64,000 nt of DNA from Nitrospirota bacterium (GTDB lineage: Bacteria > Nitrospirota > Thermodesulfovibrionia > Thermodesulfovibrionales > Dissulfurispiraceae). Positions 12,424 to 54,218 of the stretch are shown in pieces; the first letter of the stretch is position 1, and every line of letters starts with the position of its first letter. Below the pieces are notes generated by a model, which was not told the origin of the DNA, ran no database searches, and saw only the letters and a list, made by a program, of their open reading frames with translations. The stretch covers positions 320,001 through 384,000 of the forward strand of contig CAWBMP010000002.1 of NCBI GenBank assembly GCA_963790025.1, in the 5' to 3' direction. The translations under genes were made by a program, and so were the position numbers.

Positions 12424-13878
12424 ATGGACTTTTGTCTTTCAATAGGGATAGATAAATATATCCACTTAGTTCCGCCCACGCCCTTTGCAGAAAATGATGC
12501 AAAGGAGTTTAAAATTATTATGGAAAGCGTTTTTAAGGTTAAATCTGCTGATCTCCTACGAGGGCATTATGCTACATACACGAATGTCAAATCTCATGTT
12601 ATGAAGATTGCTGCGAAGCTTGAAAAAGGAGATAGATTTTTTTTATTTTATGCTGGACACGGCCAAAACTTTGAAGGAAGTCCGGCCATAAGTTGCTACG
12701 ACACCACGCCAGACGATAAAACAACATGGCACGATGTGATAGATTTAATGAAAACAGTTAAGGAGAATGGCTGCGAGAAAATACTCCTTTTCATAGATGC
12801 ATGTGAGAGCACAATTGGACTGGGATCAAGAAAAAAAGGTCTGGGCAAATTCTCTATAGAAGAAATCAAAAAACATATTATAAAAAGTACTTATTCAAGC
12901 GTGTTCAGCGCAACGTCTCACAAGGGGATAGCGGACATTATGCCTGATAAGAAACACGCGGATATGGACCTATTACCTGCTACAGGCTCTGAAGTGGAGA
13001 AGAACCCAACGCTTTAAAAGAGGAAAGCTTATTGACTAACTATTCGCTTCAAACATCCCTAAGTATGAGTGTTAAGAAATACTGCAAATCAAACAAAGAC
13101 TGCGATATGCAATCTCTCACGTATGGGGAAAACAGAAGGCGAATTTCTAATCAAGGATTTCACGAAGTCGGTAATCAAATATAAAGAACTTCCTCCATCA
13201 AGTATTCGTCGGATTGAGTTTGTTACCATTCACATCTGAAGGCGTTAAGATGCTGTCCGGATTCAAAGCTGGGCATACTATCCCAAAGTTTCATTCTAGT
13301 GCTGTTGATAATTTTATAAATAGCATTGCAGAGGATGACATTAAAAAGCATATCGAAGATGTTTCTCAGGGGTTACGGAAACTGCTAAATTTAAAATCTA
13401 CGGATTTTAAACTAGCTACGATGATGGATGCGGGTCATTTGAGTGCCCCTATTTTAGGTATTCATATTGTGTTGAAATTGATGCGAATGACCTCAGAGAA
13501 GTTGAATTCACAGCGACTCTCGAACCTTATGATATTAATAAAATAATCGAGGTGTCAAAGAAGTTCGATCAGTGTTTTCCAGAATGGTTTGAATACCTCT
13601 TATTTACTTTGTCCAAACCAATGAATGTTGAAAAATTGATACGTACTATAGAAGAATCAAAGGCTGGGACGTTAAAGGATTTTAACTACGATTACCCCTC
13701 GGATAAATCGTCTGTTACGTTGTCGAGTGAGACGTTGGGAAGGGAAATTACAATTCTAGATAACGAAATTAAAATTCACTTTAGGGCAAAGGAAGAAATT
13801 CCATCAATGTTAAAAAGCTTAAAAGAACTCGCCAATGATTTAGTATTAATTTCTCCCAATTATAAACTTCTTGAATAG
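12424..13878 (+). pseudogene. Caspase-family (peptidase C14) protein with uncharacterised C-terminal region, interrupted by about 5 frameshifts
   Basis: SIGIDKY, FYAGHG and FIDACES (His-Cys dyad); reading continues in other frames (HGIWTYYLLQAL, GEFLIKDF, VKMLSGFKAGHTIP, GSFECPYFRY) to the stop at 13878. Confidence 0.8.
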
Positions 13879-15481: not shown

Positions 15482-16717
15482 GTCAGACTCTCCACATGGT
15501 CACAAATACGGATAAGTACGCTCGAATACTGATGTTCGGTTCCTATTGCCAGGACAAATGATATATGTTTCAAATGGCGCAATCTATCCAACAAAGCCGG
15601 CATTTCATCTCTGATCATTTCATCAGAGACGTTTTCTGTCTAAATCTTCTAAAAAGATTATGAGACGCATATGTGCAGCATCTAATAGCACGTCTAATTT
15701 TGCCAATGTGGTATGAGGGCTGTCTTGCCGGTTCAGTAGCAGGAAACTTATGAAACCTAATGGACCTTTTAATAGCTCTAAGGCTTCAATATAAGCGGCG
15801 GGTGTGGTTATAACTGATAAGCAATCTATTTCAGCACTTAGACGTTTGATGGCTATAGTAAGGATTTGTTGAGCGATAGAGCCTTTTATCCGGCCCCATC
15901 CATCGACCCGACATATAAGGAGTTTGCCATAAAAAAAATCGGAATCATCATGAACTGAACTAAAAGCCTTTGAGGTTTCACATGGATTATTAAGATAATA
16001 TTCTACCAAATTCAGCAAACTACTTTTCCCGATACCGTATTGCCCAACAACCCCAATAGTTTTTAATTCTCGAAACATTAGCTCACACGATATTCGTTGT
16101 GCCATAACTGACAAACCAAAGCGATCTTGAGCCGGTTGTCTTATTGGCACCTCTTCCTGAAGCCAGTGAATCAAATGATCAGGACTATCCAGCACGCTTT
16201 GAAAGTTCCCTGCTGAATCAGCAGATTGAAGCGGCAAAGAGGTTTCTTGAGTTAAACTGAGAGAGAAAAATCTATGAAATAGAGATGCCGTTGCAAATCC
16301 AACTATCATCGACGACGCGACATATCCGAAAGCGTAGAAGTTGACATAGTTGCTCAAAACCTGACGATCAGATAAGGGAAACATAGACAAAAGCCAACAA
16401 TAGACACACAGGCCAACAAGGCTAAAAAACCAGACAGGTGGATATCGAATAAATCTATCTGGCGATAAATCACCCCAGCGAAATCCACCAACCCTGATTA
16501 ACAAAAACCATAGGAAGCCACTAATCAGGGTAGTGATGAAAAATTGTAGCCATATTGGCCAAGGACTTGTGATTTGACCAAATCTATCAGATAAAAATTG
16601 GATTAATGGATAAAGCAAGACACATACGAGTATTGCCACAACAATAAGAGCCAATAGATCTAACCAGCGTCTAAGCGAAGACCGCATAGAAATAAAAGCC
16701 ATTTTCATTTTATTCAT
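15478..16717 (-). pseudogene. N-terminal portion of membrane-anchored KAP-family NTPase, +1 frameshift near 15633
   Basis: Several N-terminal TM helices, DRFG, Walker A GQYGIGKSS, Walker B IIFLEDLDR; removing one A extends the frame to ...ICDHVESLT*. Confidence 0.8.
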
Positions 16718-18642: not shown

Positions 18643-19827
18643 CTATACACATACCTCCTTAAAATGAGTTCTCTGAGTCAGCATAGCAAACATAACTCTG
18701 ACCAGTTTGTGAGCTGTTGCAAGCGCAGCTTTTTTAAATGGCTGGCCAGCTTCTTTTCGTTTCATGAAATATTCCCTGAATGTTGGGTTGTGCTGTATCA
18801 CGCATACGGTCATAAGCCAAATGACCCTTCTGAGATGACGATTGCCCCTCTTTGAGATTCGGCTTGACCCTTCATATTTCCCTGATTGATACACTGATGG
18901 ATCTATTCCGGCAAAAGCGATAAGATTCTTTACGGAAGGGAAATTGCTTATTTTGCCAATCTCGGCAAGAAATGCAGTGGCAGTTTTGTCAGAAATTCCA
19001 TTGATCGAGGTAATAATCTCTAAGTCCTCAATCATCATTGATTTGCAGGCCTCGGTAAGTGCTTTGGCCAGTTCATTGCGCTGTTCATAAAGATGCTTGA
19101 TCGTAGATATCTTTCCTCTGAGAATCAACTCCTTTGCTGGACTCACTGTTGCAACAGAGTTCTGTGCTGCCTGGATAAGGTCTGCTGCTGTGTAGGTCAA
19201 TCTGGTGCCCACTCCCTTTCTGTTCAGTGCTTTTGCTATTGCCCTGGGTTTGGCAGCTTTCACCATGCGAGCAGAAGAAAACTCCTGCAAAAAGTCGAGC
19301 ATTACCTTTGTTGAGGGATCGCAGATAGATTCCAGTTCCGGGAAGATTGTTTGAAGGAGTCTTTTGATCTCTGTTTTATTGATAGATATTAGCTGACATA
19401 GCGATTCACTCTCTCTTGCAAGATCTCTGAGGTCCTGCAGGTCCTGGGTAACCGACAGTTGCGAGAGAGAATCCCTGTGTATCATAGCGAACTGGGCAAT
19501 GGTACCGGCGTCTTTCTTGTCCGTCTTAGTCTTCCGAAGAGAAAGTCTGGCAAAATTTGAAATCAGCAGCGGATTAATTACAACAGCGTTCACGTTATTT
19601 GCGGTGAGGAATGAGAACAGGTTGATGTGATAGCACGCCGTAGATTCCATGGCGACGAGCACGTCTGCTAAGTCCCGACTCTTGCTCTTCAGTTCATCCA
19701 ATAAGTTGGAAAATCCCGTGCTATTCATAGGAAATGACATGGAAAAAAGAGTCTCGCCCTTGGCATTTAGACCATGCCCCGTGGACGAATCCTTTGCTAC
19801 ATCAATCCCAACGAAAACCTCGATCAT
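18643..19827 (-). CDS. IS110-family DEDD recombinase/transposase
   Basis: GIDVAK, MESTACY, KTDKKDA, AGIDPSVYQSG, SKRGNRHLR; AGGAGGAGG RBS before ATG at 19827. Confidence 0.95.
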   Translation of the reverse strand: MIEVFVGIDVAKDSSTGHGLNAKGETLFSMSFPMNSTGFSNLLDELKSKSRDLADVLVAMESTACYHINLFSFLTANNVNAVVINPLLISNFARLSLRKTKTDKKDAGTIAQFAMIHRDSLSQLSVTQDLQDLRDLARESESLCQLISINKTEIKRLLQTIFPELESICDPSTKVMLDFLQEFSSARMVKAAKPRAIAKALNRKGVGTRLTYTAADLIQAAQNSVATVSPAKELILRGKISTIKHLYEQRNELAKALTEACKSMMIEDLEIITSINGISDKTATAFLAEIGKISNFPSVKNLIAFAGIDPSVYQSGKYEGSSRISKRGNRHLRRVIWLMTVCVIQHNPTFREYFMKRKEAGQPFKKAALATAHKLVRVMFAMLTQRTHFKEVCV

Positions 19828-19849
19828 TTGGATTACCTCCTCCTGACAG

Positions 19850-20000
19850 ATTTTGAAGGGAAGGATATGCCTCCCAGCCAATACACCCGCGTTACCAGGG
19901 CTCTAAGGCCCAATCAACTGATCAGGGCTAGGGGAGGCAGGGGATAAACAGAAACAAGGGTTCTATCACCCAGTGAGCACCATATCCTCCTGCCCTTCCT
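19850..20000 (-). ncRNA. Candidate IS110 bridge RNA
   Basis: Two stem/internal-loop/hairpin modules (GGGT-gataga-ACCC; GGGC-cttaga-GCCC closed by GCCTCCC..AGCC / GGCTGGGAGGC) upstream of the recombinase. Confidence 0.55.
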
Positions 20001-20290
20001 GACTTCTTTATAACATAATCTGTTGGTAGGTGTGAGGATGTAGCGTCTCGACGTCCGGCTGAAAACACGCAAGAGCCTCTTGCGCTCAAGAAGGATGATT
20101 TTGGAGTCAAGAAAAATACAATTTGTGGCTTCTAAATAGTCAGGCTCAAGAACTTTGCAAACTCATTGTTAACCATCATGTGATTTTAACCCACTATGGA
20201 TATTTATCGGCGTCGAACAGCGACTCACTGTAGTTCATTGACACAGATACATCTTTAGACTAATGAAACTTGCATAATCGACCTTACAAA

Positions 20291-20328
20291 TGCGATAATT
20301 GTCGTATACAACTACAACAAATGTCGTA
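20291..20328. promoter_or_regulatory. Tandem imperfect palindromic operators upstream of the TA operon
   Basis: tgcgataattgtcgta (20291-20306) and tacaacaaatgtcgta (20313-20328). Confidence 0.55.
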
Positions 20329-20350
20329 AATAAGAAAGGTGGTGTTAATT

Positions 20351-20926
20351 ATGCCGCACAGAATATTTCAGGCGCAATCCTGTGAGCACGAAAGCATAGA
20401 ACTGCGGGCTCTTGTTCTACTTGGGGTAAAAGAGATCATAAAGGCTATGATGGATTACCAGAAACATAGCGGTTCTAGAACTACTAAGCATTTTTTATCT
20501 CACAGAGAGACTATGTTAAATTGGGAACCTTCGAAACATATTTGCCTTGACATAGGCGGTCTGCGACCGGACCACTTTATTCGGGAAGGGTTTGATAGCA
20601 GATCAAGCCGGCTCCTGAAGAATAGCCTCAGGATAACCGACCATGAGATATCAGAATTGATCGGTGTTACAAGCAGGACGATCCAAAGAAAGGTGAAGGC
20701 GAAAGAGAAATTTGACATGATAGCTAGCGACCGCCTGTATCGTGTAGCACTTGTTTTTGCACTTGCAACGGAAGTATTCGAAAACGAAGAAGAGGCTAGG
20801 GAATGGCTCCGTGAGCCTCAGTATGATCTTGGTAACAGAATTCCCCTTGAGGTCATCCAGACAGAGGCCGGCGCCAGAGAGGTTGAGAGTCTTCTTCGGC
20901 GTATTGACCAGGGCGTCCTGGCATGA
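20351..20926 (+). CDS. Xre/MbcA/ParS-family antitoxin
   Basis: HTH-like ELIGVTSRTIQR; SDRLYR, AREWLREP, IPLE...TEAGAREVE..L.RI..G; start codon uncertain. Confidence 0.88.
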   Translation: MPHRIFQAQSCEHESIELRALVLLGVKEIIKAMMDYQKHSGSRTTKHFLSHRETMLNWEPSKHICLDIGGLRPDHFIREGFDSRSSRLLKNSLRITDHEISELIGVTSRTIQRKVKAKEKFDMIASDRLYRVALVFALATEVFENEEEAREWLREPQYDLGNRIPLEVIQTEAGAREVESLLRRIDQGVLA

Positions 20927-21408
20927 TGCAATGCTGGCGTATTGTAAATAAGAAGTGGGCTGTCGATGCTTTCTCTGGCGAAGGAGCCCGCAACTATCCT
21001 GGACGATGGAACCTTTCAGGGACAAGCATGGTTTATTGTTCAGAAAACCTTTCCCTGGCGGCGTTAGAACTTTTTATGCGTGTCAAGGGGCATGGACGCT
21101 ATGTATCGTACGTACGCTTTCAAGTTGATATTCCTGATGATGTTACCGTCGAAATGGTCGATGCTAAATTACTACCTTCCCACTGGGACTGTGTTCCGCC
21201 ATTGCAGTATACGAGGGAGTTGGGGAGTAAATGGGTAATCGAGAAAAGAACTGCCGTCTTAAAGGTGCCATCAGTGGCAATACATGGTGAATTTAACGTG
21301 CTATTGAACCCTATGCACTCGGATTTTGCTAAAATTATAGTCCATAACCCTCCACAACCGTTCTCTTTCGACCCACGAATGTGGGAAGATAGCACTGGCG
21401 TGAAATAG
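20923..21408 (+). CDS. RES-domain toxin (NAD+ phosphorylase family)
   Basis: GEGA..YPGRWN, YCSENLSLAALE, VPS, N.LLNP.H, FDPR; 4-nt overlap with the antitoxin. Confidence 0.92.
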   Translation: MMQCWRIVNKKWAVDAFSGEGARNYPGRWNLSGTSMVYCSENLSLAALELFMRVKGHGRYVSYVRFQVDIPDDVTVEMVDAKLLPSHWDCVPPLQYTRELGSKWVIEKRTAVLKVPSVAIHGEFNVLLNPMHSDFAKIIVHNPPQPFSFDPRMWEDSTGVK

Positions 21409-25385: not shown

Positions 25386-25865
25386 TTAGTCTTCGGAAAG
25401 CAGGGCGATAATGCTGTTGGCGGTCTGTTTGACCATCGGCGACATCTTCTCTCCACAGAAGACGCTTCCGGCCTGAATACCTATAAAATAAACACCGGCA
25501 TCGGTATCTTCGGCCAGGATTTTTGCTACGGCCCTGATAGGAAAAGCATGTGTGCTCAGCGTGCTCTCCGGAATAAATTGTTCGGATATCACCCGCGCTT
25601 CTCCCGGCAGACCTCCGAAATCGGCAGCGTCTATAATAACTGTCCGGGCAGGTCTTAACGATGCAGCATGATCCAGGACCGTTTCCGGCCTCTCGCCGGC
25701 ATCAATAATGCGTATCCCCTTTTTCGGTGAATGAACGTGCTTTGCTATATATGGCCCAACGCCGTCATCGGACCTAAAGTCGTTACCCACTGTAAGTATG
25801 AGCACAATGCCGGATTCAGGCTGCTGCAAAATTTCAATTACGTCATCGGTTAGTGAATTGCACAT
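25386..25865 (-). CDS. Hydrogenase maturation protease (HycI-like)
   Basis: VGNDFRSDDGVG, RPE, IIDAADFG, STH. Confidence 0.9.
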   Translation of the reverse strand: MCNSLTDDVIEILQQPESGIVLILTVGNDFRSDDGVGPYIAKHVHSPKKGIRIIDAGERPETVLDHAASLRPARTVIIDAADFGGLPGEARVISEQFIPESTLSTHAFPIRAVAKILAEDTDAGVYFIGIQAGSVFCGEKMSPMVKQTANSIIALLSED

Positions 25866-27171
25866 TCAGCATATGCGTTGAGCAGGATATGCAGGGGTCA
25901 TAAGCCCTGACCAGCATCTCAAGGGCAAGCGTTATCTGTTCATCGCTCCTGGTAATTATTTCCGGGACCAGCTTCTCCATATCAAGCTCAATATTCCTGA
26001 GGTTCTGGTTGGTGGGAATCACACAGTTGGCGTCTACAATTATGCCCTTTTCATCAATACTATAGTTATGGAACAATGTTCCGCGCGGCACTTCGACAGC
26101 GCCCACTCCATTCCCCGCTTTTACCGGAATCCTGGACTGTTCATTAAGCCCTACAAGTATCTCCTCATCATAATTAACACCATTATTTTTAAAGAATTCC
26201 ACTATCCCGATCGCCTCTTCAAGACAATGCACCGACTCAATAAGCTGCGCCGCAGTATTCATATATGGATTGATACATTTGGGGCTGAGGTTAAGGGCAG
26301 CGGCAACTTCCCTGGCCCTGGGATGAAGCCTTTCATAATTCAGATTAAAACGAGCAAGTGCGCCCACTGCATATGAACTCCGGCTCAGCTTTGTATGCTT
26401 TGCCGAAGAGTGGGCGACGATATATTCATTTGTAATTTTTTTATAGTCGCTTTTAGGCATTCTGACGCCGTCTGTTGAGCCGATATCGCCCATGAGAAGC
26501 GGGTATTCGCTGTCGTCTTGCACCAGTCCCACATACTCGGTATCGCGCTGGAACTCAGGAAATTTCAGGGTGGCCGCCAGTTCTACAGTGGCATTCAGAT
26601 CAGGCTGCAGGCCCCTGAGCAGGTTCAGCATGGCATCGAGGTCGCAGGCACGGGGCAGCTTGGTAAAACCGCCAACGATTGCGGATATGGGATGTACATG
26701 ACGGCCAACCAATATGTCGCAGACATCGTTGCAGGCTTTTTTCATCCGGAGTGCCCTCCGGACGACGTTTGTATGCGTATCGATCAACGGCACAAAACTC
26801 TTCACGCCAAGCAGGTCCGGTGCTGCGAGGAGATAAATATGCAGAATGTGGCTGTCTAACATCTCGAAATGGAGCAGGAGCTTTCTCAGCCTTACTGTCT
26901 GGTCCGACGGTGCAATACCCAAGGCATCTTCCGCCGCCTGGATCGATGCAAGGGTGTGTCCGCATGAGCAGATGCCGCATATCCTAGCTGTAATATGCTG
27001 CGCCTCGAACACAGAACGTCCCCTGAGCATGCCTTCGAAGAAGCGCGGGGCCTCGACAATGTCCAGTCGACATGTCTCAAGCCTTCCTTCTTTAACGTCA
27101 ACAACAATATTACCGTGCCCCTCGACCCGTGTCAGATATTCAACGTTAATCTTTACATTACGATTGCTCAT
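25843..27171 (-). CDS. Group 3b NiFe hydrogenase large (alpha) subunit
   Basis: TRVEGHG, RICGIC, VEVPRG, DPCISCSTH plus cleavable tail. Confidence 0.95.
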   Translation of the reverse strand: MSNRNVKINVEYLTRVEGHGNIVVDVKEGRLETCRLDIVEAPRFFEGMLRGRSVFEAQHITARICGICSCGHTLASIQAAEDALGIAPSDQTVRLRKLLLHFEMLDSHILHIYLLAAPDLLGVKSFVPLIDTHTNVVRRALRMKKACNDVCDILVGRHVHPISAIVGGFTKLPRACDLDAMLNLLRGLQPDLNATVELAATLKFPEFQRDTEYVGLVQDDSEYPLLMGDIGSTDGVRMPKSDYKKITNEYIVAHSSAKHTKLSRSSYAVGALARFNLNYERLHPRAREVAAALNLSPKCINPYMNTAAQLIESVHCLEEAIGIVEFFKNNGVNYDEEILVGLNEQSRIPVKAGNGVGAVEVPRGTLFHNYSIDEKGIIVDANCVIPTNQNLRNIELDMEKLVPEIITRSDEQITLALEMLVRAYDPCISCSTHMLNVQFTNR

Positions 27172-27913
27172 TTTTGTCCAGCTCCCTGCACTCGTTATAC
27201 ATATCCATCTTCTTGATTACCATATCCTGAGAAATGCGGTATTTACGGAGTACATCCTGCGCTCCTTCCTCATTGGGGTTGCTCAGCATGCCCCTGCAGC
27301 CGTAGCAGATATTTCCGTTATTGATACACCAAGAGTTGCAGCCGGCCTTTGTCACGGGACCGAGACAGGTCACCCCTTTGTCGTACATGCAGACGTTTTC
27401 ATTCAATTTACATTCAACGCATACGGCGTAATCCGGGACATAATACGGTATGCCAAGGAGTATGGCCTTCAGCACCTCCACAAACTCGGGAATGTAGACA
27501 GGGCATCCGTTCACGAAATAATCAACCGGCACTACCTGGTGGACGGCCCGCGTTTTCCCAGTGGGAAAAAAGCCGTATTCCGCTCCATACACATAGCGCC
27601 GAATATCCTCCAGGTCAACACTGTTCTTTATACCGTTCACACCGCCTATCGTAGCACAGGAGCCATAGGCAACCATGACCGTTGACCTGTCCCGTATCTG
27701 CTTTATCCGCTCAACAGCATGCTTATTGGTTATGCTTCCTTCTATTATCGCAACGTCAAGCGGGCCGTCCCACTGTTCGGACATTACCTCTCGGAACTCC
27801 ACCACATCGATTCGGTCCAGAACCTCCAGCAATGTCTCGCCCATGTTGGCAACCTGGAGCTGGCATCCCTCACAGCAGGCAAAATCGAAAAAAGCCACCT
27901 TCTTCTTTTTCAT
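27158..27913 (-). CDS. Group 3b hydrogenase small (delta) subunit
   Basis: CCEGC, EGS, GSCATIGG, GCP, VCVEC, CLGPVTKAGC, CYGCRG. Confidence 0.92.
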   Translation of the reverse strand: MKKKKVAFFDFACCEGCQLQVANMGETLLEVLDRIDVVEFREVMSEQWDGPLDVAIIEGSITNKHAVERIKQIRDRSTVMVAYGSCATIGGVNGIKNSVDLEDIRRYVYGAEYGFFPTGKTRAVHQVVPVDYFVNGCPVYIPEFVEVLKAILLGIPYYVPDYAVCVECKLNENVCMYDKGVTCLGPVTKAGCNSWCINNGNICYGCRGMLSNPNEEGAQDVLRKYRISQDMVIKKMDMYNECRELDKNEQS

Positions 27914-27914
27914 C

Positions 27915-28751
27915 TCACAGCGCCTCGCTAATGTTTTTGATGTCCCCATAATTGAAAACCGGACCGTCCTGGCAGCAATATAGATTGTCGATTTGACAGC
28001 GGCCGCATTTTCCCATCCCGCATTTCATATTGCGCTCAAAGGAGACAAGTATCTGGCGCTCAGGTATCCCCTTGAGAAGTAATTCTTTTATTACAAACTT
28101 GTACATTATGGGCGGACCGACTATCACGGCAAATGTTCGTGCAGGATCGAGGTGAATGCCGGGAATCAGGGTAGTGATACGGCCCACGTGACCCGCCCAA
28201 TCAGGGGCTCCACTGTCCACAGTACACTCATAATACACATCCATCCGTTTTCTCCAGTGCTCAACTTCATCGAGAAAAAGCATGTCTTGTGGTGTCTTGC
28301 AGCCCAGCAATATATGCACCTTTCCGAAGTCCCGCCGGTTATCGAGGACATAATTGATCAGTGACCTGAGCGGGGCAATGCCGAGACCTCCCGCTATGAT
28401 CAGCAGATCATTACCCTCAAGTATCCTGATGGGGAAACCCTTACCGTAAGGCCCCCTGATACCAACTTCATCCCCTGCTTCGAGATGGTGCATTGCACGT
28501 GTAACCTTTCCCACCGCTCTCACCAGGACATCAAACGATCCCCGTTTTGTTGGAGATGATGCTATAGATATGGGGACCTCACCAGCCCCGAAAACAGAGA
28601 TCATTATAAACTGTCCCGGCTCGTAATCAAGGTTCTCCGTCATGTCCAGAGCAATTTCAAACAGTCTTTCCTGAGATGTCATCTGCTTTGTGCGGAGGAG
28701 CGTTCCTTTCTTGAACCGGTAATTCGAGTCCTTTATAACCACTTTTTCCAT
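27915..28751 (-). CDS. Group 3b hydrogenase gamma subunit (FAD/NAD(P)-binding, 2Fe-2S)
   Basis: PGQF, RGPYG, AGGLGIAP, CGMGKCGRC...C.DGPVF. Confidence 0.92.
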   Translation of the reverse strand: MEKVVIKDSNYRFKKGTLLRTKQMTSQERLFEIALDMTENLDYEPGQFIMISVFGAGEVPISIASSPTKRGSFDVLVRAVGKVTRAMHHLEAGDEVGIRGPYGKGFPIRILEGNDLLIIAGGLGIAPLRSLINYVLDNRRDFGKVHILLGCKTPQDMLFLDEVEHWRKRMDVYYECTVDSGAPDWAGHVGRITTLIPGIHLDPARTFAVIVGPPIMYKFVIKELLLKGIPERQILVSFERNMKCGMGKCGRCQIDNLYCCQDGPVFNYGDIKNISEAL

Positions 28752-29815
28752 ATCTTGAGATCACTCTCCTTTATCATAGCCTCCAGAGTCTCCTTAAGCT
28801 TTATCCCGGCCATACAGGTGCGGCTGCATCTTCCGCAGCCCGTGCAGAAAAACCGCGAGAATTTATCAACAGGGTATCTGAACTTGCGGTAATAGCGATG
28901 CCTCTGGCGCGCCGAGCGTTCCTTGCGAAAGTTTTCACCGCCCGCCACCCTGGCAAAAGGCTCAAGCTGGCAGGAATCCCAACGACGGTAGCGTCTCCCT
29001 CTCTTCAGATCTAAGTCCACCTCATCAACAATATCGTAACAGTAACATGTAGGGCATACAGCAGTGCAATTACCACAGCCCAGGCACCGGTCCTTAAGCT
29101 CAGTCCACACCATACTTCCCTTTGATCTGTCAAAGAGCTCAGGAATATCATGGTAATCAATCGGCAGTTCCCGCCTGAAAATGTTTCTCTTTTTCTCTCT
29201 CAAAAGTCCGAGTTCTTCCATGTGCCCTTCGTTCGCCGGCTCGCTGCATTTTACCGCTTCTATTGTCTCCTCCCCTGCCTGGGTATTTATATGGACTATG
29301 AAGTAATCGCCCAAATCGGTAAAGAACAGATCATATCCTCCACTCGGCAAATAAGCGTTCACAAGGGCGCAACTCGCGTATTCATCACAATATTCATTAC
29401 ATTCCAGACCCATTATATTTATATTCCGCTTGTGCATAAGATAGTTGTAATCTCTCGGGCGTTCCGAAAAAACCATGTTCAGGCATTGGATTCCGGCAAG
29501 GTCACACGTATGGACCCCGAAAATCGTCATTTTTTCATATTCTACAACGGCCTCGGCAAACAGTCCTTTGCTTGTGTCAAACTCCAAAAGCGTCTCCCGC
29601 TGCGGCATAAAAAACTTTTTAGGTGGTAAAATAGTCGGGATATATTTTAGTGCGATGCTGTCTCCTGAGGTGACCGCCCCAAAGGAAAAATTTTTATACC
29701 CCCTGGATACCGGCGCAACCACCTTTTGGATTTTTGAAAGTCTCGATATAAAACTATTAAACTGCTCTTTTTTGATTACGACATATTGCAAATCTTTCAT
29801 ATGTCCCTCACACAC
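28733..29815 (-). CDS. Group 3b hydrogenase beta subunit (4Fe-4S dicluster, AsrA-like)
   Basis: CLGCGNCTAVCPTCYC, RRWDSC, CTGCGRCSRTC. Confidence 0.92.
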   Translation of the reverse strand: MCEGHMKDLQYVVIKKEQFNSFISRLSKIQKVVAPVSRGYKNFSFGAVTSGDSIALKYIPTILPPKKFFMPQRETLLEFDTSKGLFAEAVVEYEKMTIFGVHTCDLAGIQCLNMVFSERPRDYNYLMHKRNINIMGLECNEYCDEYASCALVNAYLPSGGYDLFFTDLGDYFIVHINTQAGEETIEAVKCSEPANEGHMEELGLLREKKRNIFRRELPIDYHDIPELFDRSKGSMVWTELKDRCLGCGNCTAVCPTCYCYDIVDEVDLDLKRGRRYRRWDSCQLEPFARVAGGENFRKERSARQRHRYYRKFRYPVDKFSRFFCTGCGRCSRTCMAGIKLKETLEAMIKESDLKIWKKWL

Positions 29816-29818
29816 CTC

Positions 29819-30079
29819 TTACCCATATTTCACCTTAAAATAGAGGATCACCAAAATAAAGAGAAAAGATACACTATTTGCGGCAACAAGCGGGAGATTG
29901 CGTAAAAAAAAGCCGTATACCATCCAGAGAAATACACCGGTACCCAGTATAAGATACATCAGCAGAGAGATGTCCCTTGTCTCTTTCATTTTCCAGGATT
30001 TGATCAACTGGGGGACAAGTGATGTGGTGGTCAGTGCAGCCGCCACTAATCCGATCAGGGTAATGCCATCAGGTTGCAT
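29819..30079 (-). CDS. SemiSWEET/PQ-loop transporter
   Basis: LTT.SLVPQLIKSWK.KETRDIS, LWMVYG, AN motif; three TM helices. Confidence 0.92.
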   Translation of the reverse strand: MQPDGITLIGLVAAALTTTSLVPQLIKSWKMKETRDISLLMYLILGTGVFLWMVYGFFLRNLPLVAANSVSFLFILVILYFKVKYG

Positions 30080-30114
30080 AATTAATTATAACCCATGGCA
30101 AGGTGTCGAAATAC

Positions 30115-30143
30115 AAAAAAAAGCGGCTGAAGTCGCCGCTTTT
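30115..30143 (-). terminator. Rho-independent terminator of the ribosomal superoperon
   Basis: AAAAGCGGC-gacttca-GCCGCTTTTTTT on the minus strand. Confidence 0.85.
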
Positions 30144-30276
30144 ATTTGCAATTTTTGGATTTTCCCGAATCCTTGCGGGAAACAGCTCAGGTGGGGACCC
30201 CCAGCCTGGGCAATACAAACAACTGAACGATTACCCAAACGACAAGAATGATGGCGCCCAAAAAGATGTCATTCAT
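30142..30276 (-). CDS. Small single-TM protein, candidate selenoprotein (29 aa to TGA, 44 aa with read-through)
   Basis: ATGA overlap with the rplQ stop, GGAG RBS; MNDIFLGAIILVVWVIVQLFVLPRLGVPT-TGA-AVSRKDSGKSKNCK-TAA; hairpin after the TGA. Confidence 0.65.
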
Positions 30277-30674
30277 TTCTTCTCCGCTGTTTTTTCCGCA
30301 ATCTTGGGAACCGCACTTTCATAATCAATAAACTCTATAATCGCCATTGGGGCACGGTCATTGACCCTCTGCCGGGTCTGAACGATCCTTAAGTATCCCC
30401 CATTCCTATCGGCAAATCTCGGTGCTATATCCGAGAAAAGTTTCGATACAACTGTTCTGTTGGGTATATATGACAGCACCATTCTTTTTGCATGAAGGTC
30501 GCCCCGCTTGCCAAAAGAAACCAGTTCTTCAGCTATGCTCTTAATGGCCTTGGCCTTCGCAAGGGTTGTCTCTATTCTCTGGTGTTCAAAGAGCGATGAT
30601 ACGAGGCCGCGGAGTAATGCCTTCCTCTGGTTCGCGGTCCTTCCGAAATGCCTGCTTGCCACTTTATGATTCAT
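30273..30674 (-). CDS. rplQ: 50S ribosomal protein L17
   Basis: RIETTLAKAK, RNGGYLRI; follows rpoA. Confidence 0.97.
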   Translation of the reverse strand: MNHKVASRHFGRTANQRKALLRGLVSSLFEHQRIETTLAKAKAIKSIAEELVSFGKRGDLHAKRMVLSYIPNRTVVSKLFSDIAPRFADRNGGYLRIVQTRQRVNDRAPMAIIEFIDYESAVPKIAEKTAEKK

Positions 30675-52307: not shown

Positions 52308-53438
52308 ATGATACGCACTAATGTCCTTGTTATTGGCGGCGGTCCTGCCGGGGCTACGGCTGCACGAATACTGGCGCGCAATAAGATCGAGACCACCCTT
52401 GTCGAACGTGATCTCTCCTATGCAAAACCATGCGGCGGCGGCATTCCATCTTCCGCCTTCGACGAGCTGGACATTCCCGAATGCACCATCAAAAAGAAGG
52501 TTAAAAAAATCAGCATCATATCTCCGAACGGTGAAAGGATCGATATAGATCTCTCCGGGGGATGCCTTTGCATGACCGAGAGAGGGGCGTTCGATGCACA
52601 GTTAAGAGACCTGGCAATTGTCCAGGGCGCTTCAGTCATAGAAGGCATGTTCAGCAGATTCGAGAAGACCGGCAGACCCATCATCTCGGTAATAACCCGA
52701 AAATCAACACGCGAGGAAGTGCGTGTCAAGGCAGACTATGTTATCGCAGCAGACGGGATAACGTCCAAAGTTGCTGCGTCGTTACAAGTGCCGGGGCCGC
52801 GGACCATTAATACTGTCAGCGCCCATATCAAACCCGCGGATTATGACGCTTGCGAGTTCTGGTTCGGGACCGAGCACGCATCGAATTTCTATTCCTGGGT
52901 TTTTCCCTCCGTGGGGTATGCTTCAATAGGCACCGGCAGTTCATCGCCGCGGACCCTTACTTCTTTTCTTGATACATTTGTCAGGAGAAGGTTCAACGCC
53001 CAACTGACTGAATTAAACAGACAAAAACTTCTCGGCAAACCCAGGGCTTTCAAGATGCCTGACTGGACCGGGACCCTGTTCAACAAAGAGAACGTCCTCT
53101 TTGCCGGCGATGCAGCGGGCATGGTAATGCCCGTAATCTACGAGGGAATATACTATGCCATGAAATCCGGCGAATTTGCGGCACTGGCTCTCATAGACGG
53201 AAGTCCTGACTCCTATAGAAAACTCTGGAACAGCAGGTTCCGTACGCAATTTCTACTCATGCGGACAATAAAACAGCATCTTTTCAGGGACAATGAAAAC
53301 ATAGAAAAATGGGTCGCGCTCCATAAGAGGCCCGACGTGCAGGAACTTGCGGTAAAGTTATGGCTCAACAAGAAAGACAGCAAAAGCGGCATCCTCAGGG
53401 CTTATATCAAGTTATTCAGCCATTTTTTTAAGTTCTGA
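52308..53438 (+). CDS. Geranylgeranyl reductase-family flavoprotein (ChlP/BchP-like)
   Basis: GGGPAG, KPCGGGIP, AADG, YSWVFP, GDAAG, EGIYYAM.SG. Confidence 0.88.
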   Translation: MIRTNVLVIGGGPAGATAARILARNKIETTLVERDLSYAKPCGGGIPSSAFDELDIPECTIKKKVKKISIISPNGERIDIDLSGGCLCMTERGAFDAQLRDLAIVQGASVIEGMFSRFEKTGRPIISVITRKSTREEVRVKADYVIAADGITSKVAASLQVPGPRTINTVSAHIKPADYDACEFWFGTEHASNFYSWVFPSVGYASIGTGSSSPRTLTSFLDTFVRRRFNAQLTELNRQKLLGKPRAFKMPDWTGTLFNKENVLFAGDAAGMVMPVIYEGIYYAMKSGEFAALALIDGSPDSYRKLWNSRFRTQFLLMRTIKQHLFRDNENIEKWVALHKRPDVQELAVKLWLNKKDSKSGILRAYIKLFSHFFKF

Positions 53439-53453
53439 TTACCCGCTAAAACA

Positions 53454-54218
53454 ATGACTAAGAAGCATCTCGGACAAAATTTTCTTTTCGACCCTTCCAT
53501 CCTTCACAGGGTCGTTGAAAGCTCCGGCATTACCGGCGACGATACTGTAGTAGAGATAGGACCCGGTCACGGCAGCCTTACTGCGGTCCTTGCGAATATT
53601 GCCAAAAAAGTTATTGCAATAGAGCTTGATGATAGTCTCTACAGCAAACTCCGGGAAAGGTTCAGCGGCTCCGGCAACATCGTGCTCGTCCACGGCGATG
53701 CCCTCTCTTATGCCTATGAAACCCTGGGACCATTCAAGGTTGTGGCTAATATTCCTTATTATATTACGACCCCGATCATCTTCAGGCTCATGGAAACTGG
53801 AAAACGGCTCGCGTCCATGACACTGACGGTCCAGAAAGAAGTTGCGGAAAGAATAGTCGCCGGGCCGAATACAAGGGACTACGGCATCCTGTCGATAGCG
53901 GTCCAATATGCAGCAATCCCGAAAATGGAATTCATTATTTCTCGAGAAGCGTTCAGACCCGCTCCCAAAGTGGACTCCGCCGTAATACATCTGACAATGC
54001 GCGATACACCACAGGTTGCGGTTGAGGACGAAGCCTTTCTCTTCACCGTCATAAGGACCGCCTTTGGCCAGCGCAGAAAGACCCTTTCAAACGCCCTGAA
54101 ACCGCTCTCACCGGAAATCAGGGAAAAACTGACCCGCAGCGGTATCGATCCACGCAGAAGGGCGGAAACCCTCACCATAGAGGAGTTTGCAGCACTGGCG
54201 GACGCACTGAAAGAATAA
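53454..54218 (+). CDS. rsmA: 16S rRNA m6,2A dimethyltransferase
   Basis: LGQNFL, EIGPG, ANIPY, F.PAPKVDS, QRRKTL. Confidence 0.97.
   Translation: MTKKHLGQNFLFDPSILHRVVESSGITGDDTVVEIGPGHGSLTAVLANIAKKVIAIELDDSLYSKLRERFSGSGNIVLVHGDALSYAYETLGPFKVVANIPYYITTPIIFRLMETGKRLASMTLTVQKEVAERIVAGPNTRDYGILSIAVQYAAIPKMEFIISREAFRPAPKVDSAVIHLTMRDTPQVAVEDEAFLFTVIRTAFGQRRKTLSNALKPLSPEIREKLTRSGIDPRRRAETLTIEEFAALADALKE

Follow-up and report, generated by a model that had tools for sequence, protein, structure and literature searches.

A small gene overlapping the end of rplQ

The 64-kb window analysed here is a stretch of 64,000 nucleotides from a Nitrospirota bacterium of the Dissulfurispiraceae (assembly GCA_963790025.1, contig CAWBMP010000002.1, positions 320,001 to 384,000). 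On its minus strand, rplQ, the gene for ribosomal protein L17, is followed without a gap by a small gene with an in-frame TGA at codon 30, which comparison with relatives suggests is very probably read as selenocysteine (Sec, U). Under the standard code (table 11) the open reading frame (ORF) was 29 amino acids (aa) long, MNDIFLGAIILVVWVIVQLFVLPRLGVPT, and was closed by this TGA; reading past it added 14 codons, AVSRKDSGKSKNCK, up to a TAA (Table 1). The ATG at 30276-30274 shared the letters ATGA with the rplQ stop codon at 30275-30273, and at the other end a terminator-like stem started within the TAA of the small gene. These elements agreed with the initial annotation, which had described an ATG overlapping the rplQ stop and preceded by a GGAG ribosome binding site, a TGA at 30189-30187, and read-through to a TAA abutting the operon terminator; all were present. 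Purine-rich motifs (GAGG, GGAG or AAGG) also preceded the start of the small gene in most relatives.

Table 1. Coordinates of rplQ, the small gene and associated elements in the window
Feature	Position	Strand	Details and basis
rplQ (ribosomal protein L17, 133 aa)	30273..30674	-	ORF list; TGA stop 30275-30273
GGAG Shine-Dalgarno-like motif	30282..30285	-	within the end of rplQ, 5 nt before the ATG
Full small gene	30142..30276	-	44 codons plus TAA; product MNDIFLGAIILVVWVIVQLFVLPRLGVPT-U-AVSRKDSGKSKNCK (TGA translated as U)
Codons 2-24, predicted transmembrane helix	30205..30273	-	AlphaFold2, Kyte-Doolittle, conservation
Codon 30 TGA, predicted selenocysteine	30187..30189	-	TGA in 42/43 gene-bearing loci; Cys aligned in P0003 and P0054
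Hairpin of the initial annotation, UUUCCCG-CAAGGAUU-CGGGAAA	30161..30182	-	local minimum-energy fold, -8.5 kcal/mol alone
Conserved SECIS-type hairpin, GGAUU-CGGGAA-AAUCC	30157..30172	-	covariation, per-sequence hairpins, bSECIS criteria
Codon 43 TGC, conserved tail Cys, presumed partner of Sec30	30148..30150	-	one Cys in each of 41 tails
TAA stop of the full-length gene	30142..30144	-	sequence
Operon intrinsic terminator	30111..30143	-	stem 30143-30119 (9 pairs, 5 G-C), then T run

Conservation of the gene and its TGA

rplQ was chosen as the anchor of a genome-collection scan, so that the DNA behind it could be read whether or not the small gene was there. The scan matched 599 stretches, 487 relatives were confirmed by tblastn, and 80 loci were kept (L001-L080). 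Loci L001-L060 were from Nitrospirota (Thermodesulfovibrionia; Thermodesulfovibrionales, Dissulfurispiraceae and metagenome-assembled genomes), and L061-L080 were from other phyla. By tblastn and direct reading, a small ORF lay directly after rplQ in 43 of the 60 Nitrospirota loci, and no credible match to it was seen in the 20 loci from other phyla, L061-L080. The codon homologous to codon 30 was TGA in 42 of the 43 gene-bearing loci and TAA or TAG in none. The arrangement behind rplQ is more than chance.

The 43rd copy, in L004, carried a 26-nt partial tandem duplication that shifted the frame (L004 4470-4562). Behind the duplication the old TGA, the hairpin described below and the ...KCK tail were recognisable but out of frame; the break may mark a recent pseudogene or reflect a misassembly. 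L004 was ruled out as a cysteine form, since its TGT was created at the junction of the frame-breaking duplication.

Coding beyond the TGA

Frame 0 was free of stops over the 13 codons after the TGA in all 41 sequences compared, with a stop in frame +1 in 9 and in frame +2 in 26. Every TGA-bearing copy reached a second stop 14-25 codons past the TGA, exactly 14 in 30 of 41, and differences in tail length were whole codons (e.g., +4 codons in L010). Exactly one Cys was encoded in each of the 41 tails, at the penultimate position in 28; it was written TGC in 22 and TGT in 19, an alternation indicating synonymous variation at a conserved residue. The tail had a mean pairwise BLOSUM62 score of 24.3 when read in frame 0, and the other sense frames gave 6.9 and 9.1. 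When the whole gene was compared in six frames, the sense frame scored 111 and the other five at most 73.5. In the protein alignment (A2, 41 sequences) M1, Q18, P23, G26 and residue 30 were invariant, and W14, L17, L25 and C43 were at least 90% conserved.

Cysteine forms and database matches

An exhaustive search of 1.84 billion representative proteins with the 44-aa query returned a single match, P0003 (58 aa, E 3.8e-4), which reads ...LPKLGVPTCLSGSCAAP... and has Cys aligned at the Sec position. A profile search with A2 (E ≤0.01) gave 55 clusters, 45 of them exactly 29 aa long; all ten clusters of other lengths and four of the 29-aa ones were fetched. Nine of these ten stopped at ...G-x-x-[TS] like the 29-aa forms and had longer called N-termini. 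The tenth, P0054 (61 aa; profile E 2e-5), runs on as ...LPRLGVPTCLSGACAVP..., and BLASTP (E 1e-8) aligned its C30 to residue 30 of the window protein; P0003 and P0054 share ...GVPTCLSGxC.... For the 41 unfetched 29-aa clusters, truncation was judged solely by length and a query coverage of 66%. Where a database name was given, it was "hypothetical protein", and a single-sequence word-indexed search matched only the window's own 29-aa entry.

No family of NCBIfam 20.0 matched the 44-aa form (P0001) or the 29-aa form at E ≤10. A Pfam-A scan of P0001 at the same threshold gave DUF1467 as its sole match, which scored 14.6 bits, below the cut-off of 29.4, and was rejected; the Cys form P0003 matched no Pfam family at E ≤1e-6. 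A protein-atlas look-up of P0054 gave only a high-scoring lead to an unnamed cluster. Longer or fused relatives were not found, which is weak evidence.

A conserved SECIS-type hairpin after the UGA

RNA structure was read from alignment A1, which runs from TGA-6 to TGA+50 in 42 sequences (L004 and the N-containing L024 were excluded). Folds of single sequences showed a recurrent hairpin about 17 nt past the UGA, for example GGGUUC-GGG-GAACUC, GGAGUC-GGGC-GACUCC, GGAAGUC-GGG-GACUUCC and GGCCA-GGA-UGGCC. The window counterpart, a candidate selenocysteine insertion sequence (SECIS), had a 5-bp stem starting 14 nt after the UGA and a loop (30167-30162) starting 19 nt after it. On A1 the conserved helix was paired in 75.2% of cells compared with 59.9 ± 1.5% in shuffled alignments, 48 cells were altered on both sides compared with 17.7, and the covariation score was 0.494 compared with 0.226; none of 500 shuffles reached any of these values. 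Controls in which the 3' partner was slid by 1-3 columns were paired in at most 54.4% of cells. A model-based alignment with a covariance model built from A1 (R1) gave the same pair counts as A1 itself. When run over 657,858 bases, R1 matched nothing beyond the known sites, which as training sites are bound to match, the remnant in L004 (E 0.0078) and a single chance hit (E 0.76). No Rfam family matched at gathering thresholds.

The consensus bacterial SECIS (bSECIS), as given in the available part of a May 2026 review, has a loop of 3-9 nt, a stem of 4-16 bp, a G in the first two loop positions, a UGA-to-loop spacing of 16-37 nt and a minimum free energy of ≤-7.5 kcal/mol (PMC13188914). A hairpin of bSECIS shape (stem 4-8 bp, loop 3-6 nt) was present in 41 of the 42 sequences. 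Forty of these 41 hairpins had a G in the first two loop positions, and the spacing fell within 16-37 nt in all 41, being 19 or 20 nt in 36.

The initial annotation had assigned the SECIS role to another hairpin, UUUCCCG-CAAGGAUU-CGGGAAA. That hairpin exists and is the minimum-energy fold of the region, but its candidacy as the SECIS did not hold up: its helix was paired in 51.7% of cells compared with 49.7% in shuffles, 59 of 500 shuffles reached this value, and a slide of -1 gave 53.4%. The accompanying worry that the spacing, then put at about 14 nt, was on the short side is removed by the conserved hairpin, whose loop starts further downstream. The two hairpins overlap in the window and are mutually exclusive. 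Their combination as an H-type pseudoknot was discarded by reasoning, without computation, because such a fold would leave no linker across the 7-bp stem.

The residues encoded by the stem varied by subgroup (KGSGNSK, RKSGTSK, KGQDGQP) while the pairing was kept, indicating that the RNA is selected in its own right and that the protein and RNA levels are both under selection. In A1 columns 41-43 (window 30167-30165) the Ser codon of the hairpin was mostly UCG, and the Gly codon next to it always supplied the Gs of the loop, which points to a codon choice dictated by the RNA element.

These data bear on a simpler explanation, in which the gene ends at the UGA and encodes a 29-aa membrane peptide, and everything downstream is RNA only, a stabilising or regulatory hairpin in front of the terminator. 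The table 11 ORF has that length, as do 45 of the 55 public clusters; TGA is an ordinary stop in the window, where it ends 8 of the 36 genes checked, including rplQ; and a conserved hairpin does lie downstream. An RNA element alone fails to account for a frame 0 open in 41 of 41 sequences, a Cys per tail that alternates between TGC and TGT, indels of whole codons, a ratio of nonsynonymous to synonymous polymorphism (pN/pS) below 1, and stem residues that change with the pairing kept. P0003 and P0054, moreover, continue with Cys exactly at the position of the UGA. We regard an end of the gene at the UGA as highly improbable.

Operon context

The small gene is the last cistron of the rpsM-rpsK-rpsD-rpoA-rplQ operon. 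Its start overlapped the rplQ stop in 39 of the 43 gene-bearing loci, by 4 nt in 21, 8 nt in 12 and 1 nt in 6, and rpoA lay upstream on the same strand in all 42 gene-bearing loci read for it. By contrast, the next gene downstream differed among loci and lay on either strand (26 of 41 next ORFs were scanned); response regulator, histidine kinase, shikimate kinase, formyltransferase, trigger factor, AccA, Mur ligase and sigma-54 activator genes were among those found. Constant genes upstream and variable genes downstream show that the small gene belongs to the alpha operon.

The 8-nt overlap has the form [AG]TGAxTGA, with the rplQ stop 5 nt inside the small ORF, and was seen in 12 loci (L022, L023, L028-L030, L040, L042, L043, L045, L047, L048 and L057). 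In some of these loci rplQ had a longer C-terminal tail, for example about 181 codons in L022.

Past the terminator in the window, two units occupied 25386-30079 (minus strand): at 29819-30079 a SemiSWEET gene (PQ-loop, 86 aa), and then a hydrogenase cluster of the group-3-type [NiFe] kind. The cluster comprised a Fer4_22 protein, an FAD/NAD-binding subunit with a DHODB Fe-S domain, the small and large subunits and a HycI protease. No in-frame TGA was seen in the hydrogenase large subunit of the window.

The terminator itself raises the question of whether the ORF is mainly a regulatory device: Sec-tRNA-dependent read-through would carry ribosomes onto the terminator and tune transcription of the SemiSWEET and hydrogenase genes, the peptide being incidental. 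The second stop does abut or overlap the terminator stem in the window and in L001, L003 and L006. In many relatives, however, the terminator lay 20-30 nt further on or none was evident, and the downstream genes differed in kind and strand. An incidental peptide is also unlikely given invariant Q18, P23, G26 and U30 and a C43 at least 90% conserved. Since the adjacency is not conserved, the attenuator reading was rejected, and a mainly regulatory role of the ORF is extremely improbable.

Selenocysteine machinery and the identity of the inserted residue

As the initial annotation had cautioned of selABCD, no sel gene was present among the window ORFs scanned with Pfam, and tRNA-Sec was not found in the 43 loci. 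A scan of the window for ORF pairs joined by one TGA, together with Pfam, gave no other selenoprotein gene. One pair that shares a frame across a single TGA (52308-53438 and 53454-54218, plus strand) was rejected; the two encode an FAD-binding oxidoreductase and a KsgA-type rRNA adenine dimethylase, which are separate ordinary genes. Published work does place Sec use in the lineage: the available part of a preprint puts a Sec-containing cytochrome mainly in Thermodesulfovibrionia (bioRxiv 10.1101/2025.11.18.688581), and that of another study reports a full selA/B/C/D set in selC*-bearing Thermodesulfovibrio genomes (PMC5389517).

The UGA might instead be recoded to a residue other than Sec, either to Cys by a selC* tRNACys with a SelB-type factor or by near-cognate suppression. 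The available part of one study reports selC* tRNACys genes in Thermodesulfovibrio and in Nitrospirae-like contigs, and it describes all selC*-containing genomes as also holding a complete selA/B/C/D apparatus, which argues in the other direction (PMC5389517). The natural Cys homologs show that Cys works at position 30. If Cys were the residue, TGC or TGT would suffice, yet TGA is kept in 42 of 42 intact copies, and the hairpin fits the geometry of a SECIS for Sec. Recoding to anything but Sec is, in our judgement, very unlikely.

Several observations weigh against decoding as Sec. The small gene was not found after rplQ in 17 of the 60 Nitrospirota loci (L007, L013, L015, L035, L036, L038, L039, L041, L044, L046, L049, L050, L051, L054, L056, L058 and L059); in all 17 the rplQ stop was TAA or TAG, never TGA, and a terminator or another gene came next. 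The Cys forms amounted to two clusters, fewer than is usual for selenoprotein families. The pN/pS ratio was 0.40 before the TGA and 0.60 after it (29 equal-length sequences), the latter being moderate constraint only and confounded by RNA structure. With regard to the hairpin, the shuffle control ignores relatedness among the sequences, and the hairpin finder took the conserved column of Gs as its anchor. RNAalifold predicted no pairs on A1, a result attributed to loop sizes that differ among subgroups, which is why explicit pairs were counted. At -4.0 kcal/mol the window hairpin misses the -7.5 kcal/mol limit, which was reached by only 15 of the 41 hairpins, although energies were scored on the bare upper hairpin, making the comparison with the published limit inexact. 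The conserved hairpin in the window also competes with the more stable alternative at -8.5 kcal/mol. Finally, the 64-kb window held no tRNA and, as stated above, no sel gene or second selenoprotein gene among the ORFs scanned.

With these points taken into account, we consider it very likely, from comparative evidence, that the small gene is a genuine, conserved selenoprotein gene decoded with Sec, and it appears to be the founding member of an undescribed selenoprotein family. The initial annotation had proposed a 44-aa Sec-containing membrane miniprotein with a single helix, coupled to rplQ. The conserved UGA, the coding tail, the Cys-aligned homologs and the covarying hairpin support that proposal, as do the ordinary use of TGA as a stop elsewhere in the window, the linkage to rplQ, the predicted helix and the reports of Sec use in the lineage. 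Of the comparisons it had suggested, the one for homologs ending in TAA or TAG at codon 30 found none in 43 loci, the one for conserved sequence past the TGA found the open frame, the single Cys per tail and the whole-codon indels, and the one for Cys-aligned homologs found P0003 and P0054.

Other features of the window

An IS110-family transposase gene (18643-19881, minus strand) adjoined a RES toxin/Xre antitoxin pair (20339-21408, plus strand) within 18643-21408. A gene for a caspase-domain (Peptidase_C14) protein (12424-13017, plus strand) lay near one for a KAP-family P-loop NTPase (15623-16717, minus strand); these two genes may be defence-related.

Predicted protein and proposed mechanism

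AlphaFold2 run on A2 gave a helix over residues 2-24 with high confidence, a tail of low confidence and a middling mean confidence overall. The Kyte-Doolittle mean over 19 residues peaked at 2.99 over this helix. Within it W14 and L17 were near-invariant and Q18 invariant, with P23 at the helix end. The N-terminus reads MND, and residues 23-44 contain six Lys or Arg and one acidic residue. By the positive-inside rule, this basic tail, with Sec30 and Cys43, is predicted to face the cytoplasm. The second Cys came 4 residues after position 30 in the Cys forms; L053 and L060 had a distance of 7, and most other sequences one of 12-14. A second Cys that is always present at a variable distance is easier to reconcile with a flexible loop joined through a Se-S bond than with a fixed metal site.

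We propose the following course of expression. Ribosomes ending rplQ would restart at the overlapping ATG, the coupling being suggested by the observed overlap, and the UGA at codon 30 would be decoded as selenocysteine by SelB with Sec-tRNASec. SelB would be recruited by the conserved, covarying hairpin at 30172-30157 with its G-rich loop. With UGA in the A site, a ribosome shields roughly the next dozen nucleotides (compare the E. coli fdhF SECIS). A ribosome that has arrived at the UGA may thus melt the competing upstream hairpin and free the conserved hairpin, which would lie outside it. After the UGA, translation would proceed for 14 codons to the TAA.

Translation would yield a bitopic membrane protein of 44 aa with a short acidic N-terminus outside and one helix (residues 2-24). 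An interface motif, P23-x-L-G26-x-P-T-U30, would put Sec at the cytoplasmic face, and a flexible Lys-rich tail would follow, with Cys43 at its end. Gln18 might mediate a helix-helix contact, either with a second copy or with another protein of the membrane. A membrane-tethered, redox-active selenenylsulfide loop between Sec30 and Cys43 is a tentative suggestion drawn from the architecture, to which we give somewhat less than even weight.

Comparison with known systems

Like bacterial Sec genes of the E. coli fdhF type, the small gene has an in-frame UGA and a short hairpin with a G in the first two loop positions at 19 nt spacing, and TGA-bearing and Cys-bearing homologs both occur, as in bacterial selenoprotein genes. 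It differs from them in having no similarity to the listed families, in being, at 44 aa, barely longer than a SECIS, in a window hairpin (5 bp, -4.0 kcal/mol) outside the model energy limit, and in its fusion by overlap to a ribosomal-protein gene. In Table 1 of the May 2026 review, none of the 119 prokaryotic selenoprotein families and subfamilies matches it in size and single helix, in motif or in location at rplQ, and most families of that table have an NCBIfam or Pfam model, whereas no model of either library matched here (PMC13188914). Full-text searches of the accessible literature turned up no description of such a protein, nor did the available part of the deep-Sep paper (PMC12013277).

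The closest likeness in size is to very short families with Sec near the C-terminus that also came from comparative genomics, namely KCU-star/DUF466 NF033934, UXX-star NF041114 and NF041211, and dual CXXC NF041197, as far as the available part of the review describes them (PMC13188914). None of their models matched, the Sec motif here is P-[TS]-U with a distant Cys, and the available table is silent on membrane helices in those proteins. Membrane selenoproteins are represented in the same source by PF02411 (putative mercuric transport), YeeE/YedE PF04143 and the SO_0444 Cu/Zn efflux family NF033936 (PMC13188914). Sec or Cys in these proteins may handle soft metals or chalcogens. Those transporters are polytopic, whereas the window protein has a single helix and does not match their models.

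CydX, KdpF and AcrZ are operon-end proteins of 30-50 aa with one helix; such proteins are often unannotated and bind a larger membrane complex, and a polar residue in the helix, comparable to the invariant Gln18, is typical of such membrane contacts. We know of none of this type that contains Sec or sits in a ribosomal-protein operon.

Human SELENOS is, in the available part of the source, a positively charged single-pass membrane protein with a selenenylsulfide "redox loop" between its Sec and Cys, and a loop-dependent association with ribosomes and membrane-protein biogenesis has been reported for it (PMC13524514). The small protein resembles that description of SELENOS in architecture only, with a single membrane helix at the N-terminus followed by a basic, flexible tail that contains Sec and Cys. 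The parallel between the reported ribosome link of SELENOS and the position of the small gene in a ribosomal operon is suggestive, as an analogy. SELENOK is a single-pass membrane selenoprotein resembling SELENOS. No sequence similarity to either was seen (a Pfam scan of P0001 at E ≤10 gave no such family). Compared with SELENOS the small protein has 44 rather than 189 aa and the reverse order of residues, Sec by the helix and Cys at the end; its SECIS lies in the ORF and not in the 3' untranslated region, and the host is a bacterium.

A bolder extension, which we think unlikely, is that the product is the smallest known selenoprotein and a convergent bacterial counterpart of SELENOS/SELENOK. 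It would be a membrane-tethered Sec/Cys redox loop whose synthesis keeps pace with that of L17 and RNA polymerase alpha. Its site of action would be the contact between ribosomes and membrane, the SecYEG/YidC insertion site or a respiratory complex being examples, and it would link selenium or redox state to membrane-protein biogenesis in a family that is nearly all Sec-dependent, with Cys forms rare.

Implications

The gene would add a selenoprotein family that standard pipelines have missed and that public databases hold as 29-aa stubs. With a single helix, 44 residues and a place at the end of a ribosomal operon, the family would differ from the mostly thioredoxin-fold, soluble prokaryotic selenoproteins. 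Its compact natural SECIS of 16 nt, with many compensatory variants, would help to define SelB recognition in Nitrospirota, and the gene could serve as a simple marker of Sec use in metagenome-assembled Thermodesulfovibrionia genomes. If the Sec/Cys loop works as in SELENOS, the protein would be a minimal bacterial model of a membrane-anchored selenenylsulfide switch.

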